64,000 nt of DNA from an uncultured Solirubrobacterales bacterium (GCA_963702875.1 OY969768.1:875876-939875), one strand, 5' to 3'; counted from the stretch's first letter, positions 1,165-21,504 are shown. Notes: generated by a model from the sequence alone, not told the origin. Numbers and translations: made by a program.

Positions 1165-2986
1165 TCACGTGCCCAGGTGGTCCTCGAGCGCCTTGAGCTG
1201 GGCCCGCAGCTCGGCGGGCAGCTTCTCGCCGAACTTGGCGTAGTGCTCGCGCATCTGCGGCAGCTGCTCGCGCCAGCCGTCGATGTCGACCTCGAGCAGG
1301 CGCGCCATCGTCTCGTCGGTGACGTCGAGCGCGTCGATGTCGATCCCACCCTCGCCGACCGGCGGGACCAGCCCGATCGCGGTCTCATGCGCCCGCGCCT
1401 TGTTCTGGCAGCGCCGGAAGACCCAGGCCAGAACGCGCGAGTTCTCACCGTAGCCGGGCCACATGAACTTGCCGTCCTCGTCCTTGCGGAACCAGTTCAC
1501 ATAGAAGATCCGCGGCAGCTGAGCCCCCTTGCGCTCGCCGATCCGCAGCCAGTGGCCGAAGTAGTCGCCCATGTGGTAGCCGCAGAACGGGAGCATCGCC
1601 ATCGGGTCGAACCGCAGCTGGCCGACGGCCCCGGCCTGCGCCGCGGTTGTCTCGGAGGACATGATCGAGCCGAGGAACACGCCGTGCTCCCAGCCGCGCG
1701 CCTCGTGCACCAGCGGCACGACCGTCGCGCGGCGGCCGCCGAACAGGATCGCGTCGATCGGAACGCCGGCCGGATCGTCCCATTCCGGTGCGACCGAGGG
1801 ACACTGGGCGATCGGAACCGTGAAGCGCGCGTTCGGGTGAGCCGCGGGCGTCTCGGAGTCCGGCGTCCAGTCGTTGCCGCGCCAGTCGATCGCGTGGGCC
1901 GGGGGCTCGCCGGTCAGGCCCTCCCACCAGATGTCGCCGTCATCGGTCTTGGCGCAGTTCGTGAACACGGTGTTCCGAGAGACCATGTCGATCGCATTCG
2001 GATTCGTCCGCGCGCCCGGTGCCCGGCGCGACGCCGAAGAATCCGGCCTCCGGATTGGCCGCGTACAGCCGCCCGTCCTTGCCGAACTTCATCCAGGCGA
2101 TGTCGTCGCCGATCGTCTCGACCTTCCAGTCCGGGAGCGTCGGGATCATCATCGACAGGTTGGTCTTGCCGCAGGCGCTCGGGAAGGCGGCGGCGATGTA
2201 CCTGACCTCGCCCTCGGGCGAGGTCATCTTCAAGATCAGCATGTGCTCGGACAGCCACCCCTCATCGCGCGCCATCACCGAGGCGATCCGTAGCGCGAAG
2301 CACTTTTTGCCGAGCAGTGCATTGCCGCCGTAGCCGGAGCCGAACGACCAGATCTCGCGCGACTCGGGGAAGTGCACGATGTACTTGTTCTCGGCGTTGC
2401 ACGGCCACGGAACGTCCTCAGCCCCGGCTGCCAGCGGCATCCCGACCGAGTGCAGACACGGGACGAACTCGCCATCGCTGCCGAGCACATCGAGCGCGGG
2501 CTGCCCGGCCCGGGTCATGATCGCCATCGAGGCGGCCACGTACGCGGAGTCCGTCAGCTGTACGCCGATGTAGGAGATCGGCGATCCGAGCGGGCCCATG
2601 CTGAACGGCACCACGTACATCGTGCGCCCACGCATCGAGCCCTTGAACATGTCCGTCAGCTGCGCCCGCATCGCGCCCGGCTCTGACCAGTTGTTGGTCG
2701 GGCCGGCGTCCTCCTCGCGCTCGGAGCAGATGAAGGTACGGTCCTCGACCCGAGCGACATCGGCCGGGTCAGACAGCGCCAGGTAGGAGCCCGGCCGCTT
2801 GGCGGCGGAGAGCTTCTCAAAGGTCCCGGCGGCGACCAGCGTCTTCGCCAGCCAGTCGAATTCCTCAGGCGACCCGTCGCACCAGTGAACCTCGTCGGGC
2901 TGCGTCAGCGCGGCGATCTCCTCTACCCACGTCTGAAGCTGGGCATGATTGGTCGTAGCTTGGTTCGTGGGTGCGGTATGAGCCAT
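1165..2986 (-). pseudogene. pckG: Phosphoenolpyruvate carboxykinase (GTP), interrupted by one frameshift
   Basis: ORFs 1940..3157 (true ATG at 2986, MAHTAPTNQ) and 1165..1986 lie in different frames. Together they form a full-length GTP-PEPCK: [54 protein letters not shown]. The junction GVAPGTG / TNPNAIDM falls at 2008-2014. Confidence 0.85.
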
Positions 2987-3062
2987 TGGTTTTCTGGCAC
3001 TCCTTAGCTTCGGTGGTGAAGGAAGCGTACCCCGGAAACGCCCATAACAGCTTCCGTGGTAA

Positions 3063-3599
3063 CTACTCGACGTTGGCCTCGGCTGACTGCGGAGCCGCTC
3101 CGGGCTCCTTGCGGGGAACCAGCACGAGCCGCTTGAACTCGGCCACGAGCACGCCATCCTGGTTCAGAACGCGGGTGTGCACGCGCACCGTGCCGCGGTC
3201 GGGCTTTGACTGCGAGGGCTTGACCTCGAGCACCTCGGACTCGCAGAACAGCGTGTCACCGTGAAACACCGGCGCGGGGTGCTTGAGCTCCTCGGTCGCG
3301 AGGTTCGCGATCGCCTTGCCGCTCACATCCGAGACGCTCATCCCGAGCGCGAGCGAGTAGACCAGCGGCCCGACAACGACGTTGCGCCCCTGCTGGGACT
3401 GCTTGGCGTAGATGTCGTTGATGTGCAGCGGGTGATGATTCATCGTGATCAGGCAGAACAGGTGATCGTCGGACTCGGTCACGGTCTTGGCGGGCCAGTG
3501 CTTGTACACGGCGCCGACCTCGAACTCCTCGAGGTAGCGGCCGTATGGATGCGCGCCACTGGCCTCGCGCGCAGCCTGGTCTGTGTCGATCTGGTTCAT
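3063..3599 (-). CDS. MaoC-like (R)-specific enoyl-CoA hydratase/dehydratase, single hot-dog fold
   Basis: 178 aa. Contains ...[20 protein letters not shown]...[10 protein letters not shown]..., typical of MaoC/PhaJ hydratases. Divergent from the lyase gene. Confidence 0.75.
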
Positions 3600-3617
3600 G
3601 AACGGAGAATGTCAGGA

Positions 3618-3689
3618 GGTGACGCCGCATGCGGCGTCACCCAGGACCGCGCATGCGCGGTCCTGCGGTCGGGCGCATGCGCCCGACCG
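3618..3689. repeat. Three directly abutting perfect 24-nt palindromes, each centred on GCATGC
   Basis: GGTGACGCCGCATGCGGCGTCACC (3618-3641), CAGGACCGCGCATGCGCGGTCCTG (3642-3665), CGGTCGGGCGCATGCGCCCGACCG (3666-3689). They occupy 72 of the 111 intergenic nt between the starts at 3599(-) and 3711(+). Confidence 0.9.
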
Positions 3690-3710
3690 AACACCACTAC
3701 TGTTCAGAGC

Positions 3711-4775
3711 ATGCGAAACCCCCGTGACTTCGGAAAGCCGCTGGCGATCGGCGCCCCGCAGCCGATCCTTGAAATCCCCTTCAGGCCCAGCCGGATGATC
3801 CACTTCCTCGACTTCTCCAACGAGAAGATGGTGGCCAAGGCGCCCGAGATCGCCCCGACTGTCGACATCCTGCTCGGCAACCTCGAGGACGCGGTTCCGG
3901 TCGACCGCAAGGAGGCCGCGCGCGACGGGCTGATCCGGGTCGGTCGCGAGCTGGAGCTCGGTGACACGCAGCTGTGGACCCGCGTCAACAGCCTCGAGTC
4001 GCCGTGGGTGCTCGATGACCTCACACAGATCGTGTCCGAGATCGGCCACAGGCTCGACGTCGTGATGATCCCCAAGGTCGAGGGGCCGTGGGATATCCAC
4101 TACGTCGACCGCCTGCTCGCTCAGCTCGAGGCCAAGGCCGGGCTAGAGCGCCCGATCCTGATCCACGCGATCCTCGAGACCGGCCTCGGCGTCGTCAACC
4201 TCGAGCAGATCGCGACCGCCAGCCCGCGGATGCAGGGGATGAGCTTCGGACCGGCGGATCTCGCCGCCTCGAGGCGGATGAAGACGACCCGCGTCGGCGG
4301 CGGTCACCCGGGCTACCGGGTGATCAACGACCCCGATCCCGACAACCCCGACGCGCCCCGCCCGACCGCCCAGCAGGACCCCTGGCACTACTCGATCGCG
4401 CGCATGGTCGACGCCTGCACCTCAGCCGGGATCCTCCCGTTCTACGGTCCGTATGGCGACATCCGCGACGTCGAGGGGTGCGAGACGCAGTTCCGCGCCG
4501 CGTTCCTGCTCGGCTGTGTCGGCGCGTGGTCGCTGCACCCGGTGCAGATCGAGATCGCCAAGCGCGTGTTCAGCCCCGACCCCGACGAGGTGCTGTTCGC
4601 CAAGAAGGTGCTCGAGGCGATTCCCGACGGGCGCGGCGTGCACATGATCGACGGCAAGATGCAGGACGACGCGACCTGGAAGCAGTGCAAGGTGATGGTC
4701 AGCCTGGCCGAGATGCTTGCCAACAAGGACCCCGAGCTGGCCGAGGCGTACGGCTTCGCGCCGACGCCCGCGTAA
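3711..4775 (+). CDS. HpcH/CitE-family acyl-CoA lyase, of the L-malyl-CoA/beta-methylmalyl-CoA (or citramalyl-CoA) lyase type
   Basis: The internal ATG at 3711 ([11 protein letters not shown]) was chosen because the upstream part of ORF 3261..4775 is antisense to maoC. Motifs: [38 protein letters not shown]...[23 protein letters not shown]. Confidence 0.7.
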
Positions 4776-4786
4776 CAATCCCAGGC

Positions 4787-5245
4787 ATGCGGATCTCTGC
4801 GAAAGCCGATTACGCCGTGCGCGCCGCCGTCGAGCTGGCGGCCGCGACCGACGAGAAGCCGGTCAAGGCCGAGCGGATCGCGACCGCCCAGGAGATCCCG
4901 CTCAACTTCCTCGAGAACATTCTCGGCGAGCTCCGTCACGCCGGGATCGTCCGCAGCCACCGCGGTGCCGAGGGCGGCTTCAGGCTCGCCAAGCCGGCCA
5001 CGGAGCTGACCGTCGCCGACGTGATCCGGGCGGTCGAGGGACCGCTCGCGAGCGTCCGCGGCGGCCCGCCCGAGGACGCCGCCTACGCGGGTGCCTCCGA
5101 GGCGCTGCTGCGAGTCTGGATCGCGGTCCGCGCGAACCTCAGGGGCGTGGTCGAGCACGTGACCCTGGCCGACGTCGCCGGCGGCAAGCTCCCGCGCGCG
5201 GTCGACCGGTTGACCGAGGACCCGGAGGCCTGGGTCACGCGCTGA
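4787..5245 (+). CDS. Rrf2-family transcriptional regulator
   Basis: [19 protein letters not shown]...[34 protein letters not shown], the canonical Rrf2 winged helix. Lies 12 nt downstream of the lyase stop. Confidence 0.85.
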
Positions 5246-21390: not shown

Positions 21391-21476
<86 letters not shown>

Positions 21477-21480
21477 CTGG

Positions 21481-21504
21481 GAAAGCCCCGCTAGCGGGGC
21501 TTTC
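21481..21504 (+). terminator. Hairpin immediately after tRNA-Leu
   Basis: GAAAGCCCCGC-TA-GCGGGGCTTTC followed by TTCGG. Confidence 0.55.

Follow-up and report, generated by a model that had tools for sequence, protein, structure and literature searches.

Three abutting palindromes between divergent maoC-like and lyase genes of a Solirubrobacterales bacterium, probably one copy of a dispersed REP/BIME-like repeat family

What is a block of three abutting palindromes doing between the starts of two divergent genes? The question is raised by positions 3618 to 3689 of the window, as we call the 64,000-nt stretch of DNA from an uncultured Solirubrobacterales bacterium that was analyzed here. The first-pass annotation had described the block as three abutting perfect 24-nt palindromes in a divergent promoter region and had read it as a triple operator for the Rrf2 regulator encoded in cis or, alternatively, as three hairpins that insulate or attenuate the divergent transcripts. 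Inspection of the sequence and a script confirmed the arrangement: the units are perfect 12+12 palindromes of 24 nt each, they abut without spacer, and all three have the centre CGCATGCG in common. The array takes up 72 of the 111 nt between the start codon of the maoC-like gene (CAT at 3597 to 3599) and the ATG of the lyase gene (3711). The calls of the maoC-like, lyase, and Rrf2 genes also held when checked against Pfam. The features are as follows.

3063 to 3599, minus strand: gene for a MaoC-like (R)-specific enoyl-CoA hydratase, nearest to RipB/Ich (below cut-off), with a Pfam MaoC/mesaconyl-CoA hydratase domain
3618 to 3641: palindrome unit 1, GGTGACGCCGCATGCGGCGTCACC, composed of GGTGACGCCG-CATG-CGGCGTCACC, a 10-bp stem and a CATG centre
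3642 to 3665: palindrome unit 2, CAGGACCGCGCATGCGCGGTCCTG, composed of CAGGACCGCG-CATG-CGCGGTCCTG
3666 to 3689: palindrome unit 3, CGGTCGGGCGCATGCGCCCGACCG, composed of CGGTCGGGCG-CATG-CGCCCGACCG; the "first" unit in the usual orientation of the family described below
3690 to 3692: AAC flank, GTT on the opposite strand, corresponding to the moderately conserved (c)TGTT flank at one end of family arrays
3711 to 4775, plus strand: gene for an HpcH/CitE-type CoA-ester lyase (Pfam HpcH/HpaI), which sources name malyl-/citramalyl-CoA lyase
4787 to 5245, plus strand: gene for a cysteine-free Rrf2-family regulator, nearest to CymR, starting 11 nt after the lyase stop codon

The lyase is 82 to 94% identical to proteins of uncultured soil Solirubrobacterales metagenome-assembled genomes (MAGs), and an exact-protein look-up returned no record for it. 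The rrf2 gene converges on cysA, encoding a sulfate transporter, the ends of the two open reading frames (ORFs) overlapping by 11 nt (5235 to 5245). On the other side of the array, the gene for a GTP-dependent PEP carboxykinase (1165 to 3157, minus strand) is split across two reading frames. The ORF at 1940 to 3157 encodes the N-terminal domain and positions 1 to 86 of the C-terminal-domain profile, and that at 1165 to 1986 encodes positions 92 to 356. This implies a frameshift near 1940 to 1986, from either a pseudogene or an assembly indel error.

The array is not a product of chance, since base composition predicts about 8e-16 abutting triples in 64 kb, and 0.015 perfect 24-mers. In first-order Markov simulations (n = 100), perfect 24-mers numbered 0.01 on average, compared to four in the window. 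Neither is it an assembly artefact, because positions 3501 to 3702 recur with zero differences in an independent 202-nt contig of short-read soil data. The fourth perfect 24-nt palindrome of the window, GAAAGCCCCGCTAGCGGGGCTTTC (21481 to 21504), directly follows a tRNA-Leu(GAG) gene (21391 to 21477). With its T-rich tail, it resembles an ordinary terminator hairpin rather than the CATG array.

Folding of the 72-nt array is predicted to be very stable, with -68.8 kcal/mol as RNA, -42 kcal/mol as DNA, and a z score of about -6.5. No Rfam family matched the array at its gathering score. A search of positions 3400 to 3900 with an E value of up to 10 returned only sub-threshold hairpin-rich sRNAs, the best being BjrC80 with 21.4 bits against a gathering score of 80. 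No terminator was detected in positions 3300 to 4000, and scans for sigma-70 promoters were negative as well. A CRISPR-like reading, with an 8-nt constant part and 16-nt "spacers", was discarded because each "spacer" simply joins one arm from either of two neighbouring palindromes. Reading the arrays as coding was considered and rejected as well, though some frames are open.

Orthologous loci were compared using a set of 80 species-level lyase loci (L001 to L080). Three abutting palindromes, with centres spaced 23 to 24 nt apart, occupy the orthologous place in seven of them (L001, L002, L010, L020, L023, L032, and L038), and in all of these except L001 the arm sequences differ from those of the window. 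The arms of unit 1 are different in L002, L010, L020, L023, and L038, yet its symmetry is perfect there too, and unit 2 of L010 and L020 is 22 nt long, giving a centre-to-centre spacing of 23. One perfect and one half-decayed unit were found in L021 and remnants in L011, L013, L014, and L016, the remaining loci having unrelated spacers.

Covariation was evaluated in an alignment of seven genomes, comprising the window and six other species-level genomes. In this alignment, 99.5% of the stem cells are Watson-Crick paired and 18 of the 30 stem pairs have changed on both sides. Many of the changes are CG<->GC flips, for which there is no route via a G-U intermediate. The observed covariation was reached by 0 of 500 shuffles, and partners slid by 1 to 3 columns paired at only 32 to 46%. 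Mean identity was 0.67 for stem pairs and 0.71 at the third codon positions of the neighbouring lyase gene; stem pairs thus diverge about as fast as third codon/synonymous positions. Invariant across the seven orthologous arrays are the CATG and its closing G-C pair, plus scattered stem columns, and most arm positions vary. On these comparative grounds, what is conserved at the array is complementarity, that is, hairpin or cruciform potential on both strands, together with the CATG centre and the unit length, with the arm sequence being free.

Compensatory evolution through deleterious intermediates is expected to be slower than neutral. The stems change at the synonymous rate, on both arms and often by transversions, and arrays are either perfect or decaying, which fits templated correction from arm to arm. 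Symmetry could be kept in this way by quasipalindrome template switching or by hairpin-directed repair, and selection for hairpins on both strands may add to it.

One comparison does not fit this picture completely. Positions 3617 to 3692 of the window are 100% identical to positions 3907 to 3982 of L001, and the 72-nt array within them is the longest identical run between the two sequences. Window and L001 are 69% identical at third codon positions and 84% identical overall across 8.8 kb, which makes them as diverged as any other pair, and there are three differences within 20 nt on each side of the array. Two further soil contigs (runs X49 and X50) showed 16 to 19 differences from the window, all located in the flanks except for one base inserted in the array. 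Flanks and coding DNA differ by 13 to 20% between the lineages with identical arrays, whereas in equally distant lineages about a third of the stem pairs have changed. The identical array of the window and L001 argues against neutral drift plus arm correction as the full explanation and would reflect either a strong lineage-specific constraint or replacement of the cassette.

The distribution beyond this locus was assessed by scanning metagenome contigs for three GCATGC motifs at 23- to 24-nt spacing, a pattern that is blind to palindromy. At least 120 loci matched. Among the matches listed, 86 were ordinary tandem or low-complexity repeats, and at least 34 loci (GC content of 0.67 to 0.75) carry three to eight abutting perfect palindromes of the same build. 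Homologues of lyase, maoC, and rrf2 accompanied none of the 34 array loci among the matches listed. Their neighbours include genes for acyl-CoA dehydrogenase and peptidase S51, an MFS transporter, pheS/pheT, valS, a methyltransferase, an alcohol dehydrogenase, Ppx/GppA, and PfkB. Because flanking genes are shared in only two small groups of these loci, at least about 30 array sites can be considered independent. The same pattern run on viral contigs gave 39 matches and no palindromic array, thus providing no link to phages.

According to rough gene calls, the arrays usually start 0 to 10 nt after a stop codon. Between convergent genes they fill the whole gap between the two stops; in tandem pairs they are located behind the stop of the first gene, with 30 to 110 nt left before the start of the second. 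Divergent gene pairs with an array, like that of the window, were found at four or five independent sites. A hand tally of the tandem cases gave no consistent polarity relative to the upstream gene (6 distal versus 4 proximal).

The build of the family is uniform. Across 45 arrays, the inner 10 pairs are free of mismatches in 147 of 149 units, the number of different arms is 128, and centres are spaced 23 to 24 bp apart. The loose unit consensus is SGGGKCGGYG-CATG, in which CATG is invariant and mostly extended to GCATGC, a few units having ACATGT. Most arrays contain three units, some four or five, and one eight (L085, 5269 to 5459, between divergent acyl-CoA dehydrogenase and peptidase S51 genes). 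The units carry neither a GTAG nor a CGTC tag, and the sole conserved flank is (c)TGTT, usually at one end of the whole array; of 37 arrays, 70% have G at -3 and 65% have T at -2, the maoC/lyase site being counted as one locus. The unit adjoining this GTT flank starts with CGG or CCGG in most family members, and the arrays lack T-runs on at least one side. Position by position, arms of non-orthologous arrays showed 5.64 versus 5.34 matches of 10, a weak similarity that is partly circular, as arrays were oriented by the initial bases of unit 1, and that was given no weight.

Unit number is not fixed. One orthologous site in three genomes carries arrays with different arms and five (L148, 7623 to 7742), three (L152, 2320 to 2393), and three (L187, 1595 to 1666) units, from which it follows that arrays expand and contract. 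Downstream of a three-unit array, L138 (2075 to 2170) contains tandem duplications of about 42 nt with half-units (...gcaccgatccctcggcgcatgcgccgaggcttgcgcccaagt...), which suggests rearranged or decaying array material. A separate 28-nt perfect, AT-containing palindrome, CTGGTGTATAGCCATGGCTATACACCAG, was found just upstream of thrS in L243 (5693 to 5720) and L252 (around 1499 to 1526), downstream of a DSBA-like gene and about 1 kb from a gene for an IclR-type regulator. This palindrome resembles a genuine operator and bears no relation to the GC-rich arrays.

Constant centres at a regular pitch could also mean that the arrays are phased sites, 24 bp apart, for a protein that reads GCATGC across the genome and could be nucleoid-associated, a methyltransferase or restriction-like protein, or a global regulator, the arms being a mutational by-product. 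GCATGC is a classical type II recognition sequence, and the invariance of CATG, the near invariance of GCATGC, and the 23- to 24-bp spacing in 45 arrays would be in line with such a reader. A dimer contacting 6 to 8 bp leaves 10 further bp of perfect symmetry in free sequence (147 of 149 units) unexplained, as well as the double substitutions on both arms, and the octamer CGCATGCG alone is not over-represented in the window (7 matches versus 6.5 expected). We consider this reading very unlikely.

Two further sites allow filled and empty positions to be compared. In three Solirubrobacterales MAGs, triple arrays lie between the convergent ends of rrf2 and cysA (L004, 5538 to 5609; L009, 5534 to 5605; L030, 5526 to 5597), exactly where the two ORFs overlap in the window. 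The cysA ORF of L004 and of L030 continues across the entire array, which would encode a 24-residue C-terminal extension. This region is variable in all genomes, and comparison of filled and empty rrf2/cysA sites revealed no clean insertion boundary and no target duplication. The second site is on metagenome contig L177, where an array (1243 to 1314) separates pheS from pheT. The PheS of this contig is 85% identical to Solirubrobacteraceae proteins, and in four relatives (L240 to L243, around 11068) pheS and pheT overlap or lie no more than about 30 nt apart, with no array. From this comparison, the L177 array is taken to be an insertion inside a normally translationally coupled pheS-pheT operon. 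The 64-kb window contains a single array, and the roughly 84 kb surveyed around pheS in the four genomes contain none. The copy number per genome therefore looks low, unlike that of classical high-copy REPs.

These data bear directly on the operator reading. Rrf2-family sites are palindromic and roughly 20 to 30 bp long, and the 24-bp unit lies within this range. Furthermore, all array-bearing maoC/lyase loci with downstream sequence encode an Rrf2 protein, except for L032, which has the array and no rrf2 match in the 4 kb downstream. Conservation upstream of the maoC/lyase orthologues does not include a half-site, the arms being without one between orthologues, and the same arrays recur at at least about 30 unrelated intergenic sites without rrf2, maoC, or lyase. 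In addition, approximately 25 genomes keep the lyase-rrf2 pair and have no array, and the regulator itself is nearest to CymR and adjoins cysA sulfate-transporter genes. The first-pass annotation had set a dispersed REP-like element against its own proposal, and this is what the searches of metagenome contigs and related genomes found. It is thus extremely improbable that the Rrf2 regulator, whose gene follows that of the lyase, uses the array as a triple operator.

Whether the array could act on the transcripts depends on its position relative to the transcription starts. Two short boxes lie between the array and the genes.

3606 to 3616, minus strand: CCTGACATTCT, extended -10-like box (TG-n-CATTCT), 6 nt before the maoC-like ATG
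3698 to 3703, plus strand: TACTGT, a TAnnnT -10-like hexamer, 7 nt before the lyase ATG

On the lyase side, TACTGTTC is invariant in the seven aligned genomes, and the box YTACTGTTCA contains TACTGT. Its counterpart AGRATGYCAGGA (cTGaCATTCT, minus strand) is nearly invariant in them and is present in array-less relatives. Both boxes, AGAATGTCAGG (3606 to 3616) and CTACTGTTCAG (3696 to 3706), are far better conserved than the array between them, and the 35-nt intergenic region of L030 consists of just these two. A TAnnnT motif 5 to 10 nt before the start, combined with the lack of a Shine-Dalgarno sequence, was observed in 31 of 81 lyase loci, including every array-bearing one (chance, 0.4% per locus); 48 of the 81 have a 40- to 60-nt leader with AGGAG. 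Judged from the 40 nt preceding the lyase start, the orthologues alternate between these two types of 5' architecture. Leaderless transcription from TAnnnT promoters is common in Actinomycetota. Assigned from comparative conservation only, the two boxes are probably back-to-back -10 elements of leaderless maoC-like and lyase mRNAs; alternatively, they could be real regulator-binding sites of the divergent pair. Both mRNAs most likely start downstream of the array, which would then be no part of the 5' untranslated regions (UTRs) but would fill the -35/upstream spacer, spanning roughly -19 to -90 relative to one gene and -22 to -93 relative to the other. Soil metatranscriptome contigs from relatives cover the coding parts, their intergenic part being too divergent to align, and the sequencing runs that contain the array itself are DNA runs only.

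The hairpin alternative of the first-pass annotation has consequently to be divided. Its structural part stands, as the covariation preserves pairing and not sequence, and an insulating role for the divergent genes may be considered. Attenuation of the maoC and lyase mRNAs is unlikely with an array upstream of both starts. It would require that each promoter lies inside the opposite gene, so that both transcripts carry the three hairpins in their 5' UTRs and are attenuated or stabilized by them. Pairing by Watson-Crick pairs only, without G-U, is what would be expected if both strands fold as RNA, and the predicted fold is very stable. The conserved TAnnnT and extended -10-like boxes 6 to 7 nt before the start codons, placed between array and genes, speak against this arrangement, as do the L030 intergenic region that retains the boxes alone in 35 nt and the location of most family members at 3' rather than 5' ends of genes. 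Hairpins acting within both 5' UTRs are therefore highly improbable.

We consider it probable that positions 3618 to 3689 represent one copy of a dispersed intergenic palindromic repeat family of Solirubrobacterales (Thermoleophilia, Actinomycetota), REP/BIME-like in character, which is here a passenger or a structural spacer or insulator and not a gene-specific operator. Each strand of an array could fold into three independent hairpins, as a DNA cruciform, as a single-strand DNA hairpin, or as RNA in either direction. Behind stop codons, arrays would be transcribed and might form a block of 3'-end hairpins in either orientation, like REP/BIME or hairpin-cluster terminators, and identical hairpins on both strands would suit bidirectional action. 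The lack of U-tracts, the array inside pheS-pheT, and the conventional hairpin after the tRNA gene argue against strong termination. No gene end faces the array of the window, which may have been resident since before these lineages split and could serve as a spacer, an insulator, or a supercoil-absorbing cruciform between the divergent promoters.

How such a family spreads could be answered by mobility. The arrays might be mobile cassettes, devoid of host function, for which a trans-acting nuclease or transposase (RAYT/IS200-like or new) recognizes, on single-stranded DNA, the GTT flank together with the CATG loops and copies or replaces whole arrays, symmetry and trimer being requirements of the enzyme. 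An invariant centre, variable stems, and a fixed unit length form the pattern expected for recognition of structure plus loop. The array is identical in the window, L001, and the two soil contigs despite diverged flanks and coding DNA, presence and absence alternate at orthologous sites, including the insertion between pheS and pheT, and the decayed remnants in relatives indicate that arrays are either perfect or decaying. Processing of perfect-palindrome REPs by TnpA-REP is known (PMC8266576). On the other side, no transposase gene, including Y1/HUH, recurs near the arrays among 118 ORFs within 4 kb and 198 Pfam families, the units lack GTAG and CGTC tags, and rrf2/cysA showed neither a target-site duplication nor a clean empty-site boundary. 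With 128 distinct arms among 149 units, recent copy-and-paste is not evident, though the loci come from many genomes. Overall, a mobile cassette of this kind is doubtful.

In a bolder version, the arrays would constitute an undescribed class of elements defined by structure, in which a dedicated hairpin-recognizing activity enforces symmetry, the CATG loop, and the trimer and replaces the 72-nt cassette in place. We regard this as quite unlikely. If true, cassette replacement would explain identical arrays in lineages with diverged coding DNA and flanks, next to equally distant lineages in which about a third of the stem pairs have changed.

The dispersed-repeat reading has practical consequences. 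In annotation, the palindrome cluster should not be read as the operator of a regulator, and similar clusters in Solirubrobacterales MAGs should be treated as repeat elements. The arrays also provide an unusually clean natural case of both arms of a palindrome evolving together at an approximately neutral rate, through which templated correction and selection for hairpins can be tested against each other. Should they prove to be orientation-independent 3'-end blocks or insulators, they would be useful as annotation landmarks and as compact parts for synthetic biology. A description of such arrays, in Thermoleophilia or elsewhere, was not found in the literature searched (one library).

Among known systems, operators of the Rrf2 family (IscR, NsrR, and CymR) resemble the arrays in being palindromic with a unit of 20 to 30 bp. 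They conserve their half-sites, whereas CATG arrays conserve the centre only, with arms that covary and no tie to rrf2. Selfish palindromic repeats of organelle genomes, for example those of Volvox and Lobosphaera mitochondria, are also short, hairpin-forming palindromes that spread in noncoding DNA; this is a resemblance only, with hosts and base composition unrelated to those of the CATG arrays.

Quasipalindrome template-switch mutagenesis (the Ripley model, studied in E. coli by the Lovett laboratory) copies one arm onto the other and thereby yields perfect palindromes. Correction of quasipalindromes by this route is established in E. coli (PMC7202029), and template switching would explain the double changes at an approximately neutral rate in the CATG arrays. 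It is a mutational process, however, and not an element, and it leaves the invariant centre and the trimer unexplained.

Hairpin clusters and "I-shaped" terminators without U-tract, known from GC-rich bacteria, share with the arrays adjacent stable hairpins that lie within a few tens of nt of stops and could work bidirectionally between convergent genes (PMC8355165). To count as such a cluster, at least two hairpins must follow a stop codon within about 80 nt, with fewer than 15 nt separating them (PMC8355165). Most family arrays lie 0 to 10 nt from a stop; the copy in the window is located between two gene starts. Neither is the latter a canonical intrinsic terminator, that is, a hairpin with a U-tract downstream of a gene. 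Hairpin-cluster terminators, moreover, do not form a sequence family in which the loop is invariant and the unit always 24 nt long, and CATG arrays are also found between divergent genes and inside an operon.

The closest likeness is to REP/BIME elements, which are short GC-rich intergenic palindromes among unrelated genes, clustered and often placed after stops or inside operons (PMC8266576; PMC3733652). REPs are defined by GTAG- and CGTC-tagged superfamilies (PMC3733652) and include a group of perfect palindromes (PMC8266576; PMC3733652). They are mobilized by RAYT/TnpA-REP, whose gene typically has REPs on its flanks (a REPtron), and a genome usually contains many nearly identical copies. 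The size and placement of REPs, as dispersed intergenic palindromes of 20 to 40 nt, agree with 24-nt units at at least about 30 unrelated sites. The CATG units differ in that they have no GTAG or CGTC, and their conserved part is the centre or loop instead of the foot. They abut without spacer, mostly as a fixed trimer, and their arms, instead of repeating a single master sequence, vary between units and loci. The ORFs within 4 kb included no RAYT gene, and the copy number is apparently low. Since tag and RAYT are missing in this sense and the copy number is seemingly low, we did not file the array as a member of REP/BIME. The host belongs to the Actinomycetota (Thermoleophilia), which are absent from the 2013 REP survey. 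The arrays thus extend REP-like repeats to a deep actinobacterial order that is mostly uncultured, and they follow unusual rules: the loop is conserved, stems vary freely but stay perfectly paired, units abut, and trimers are preferred.
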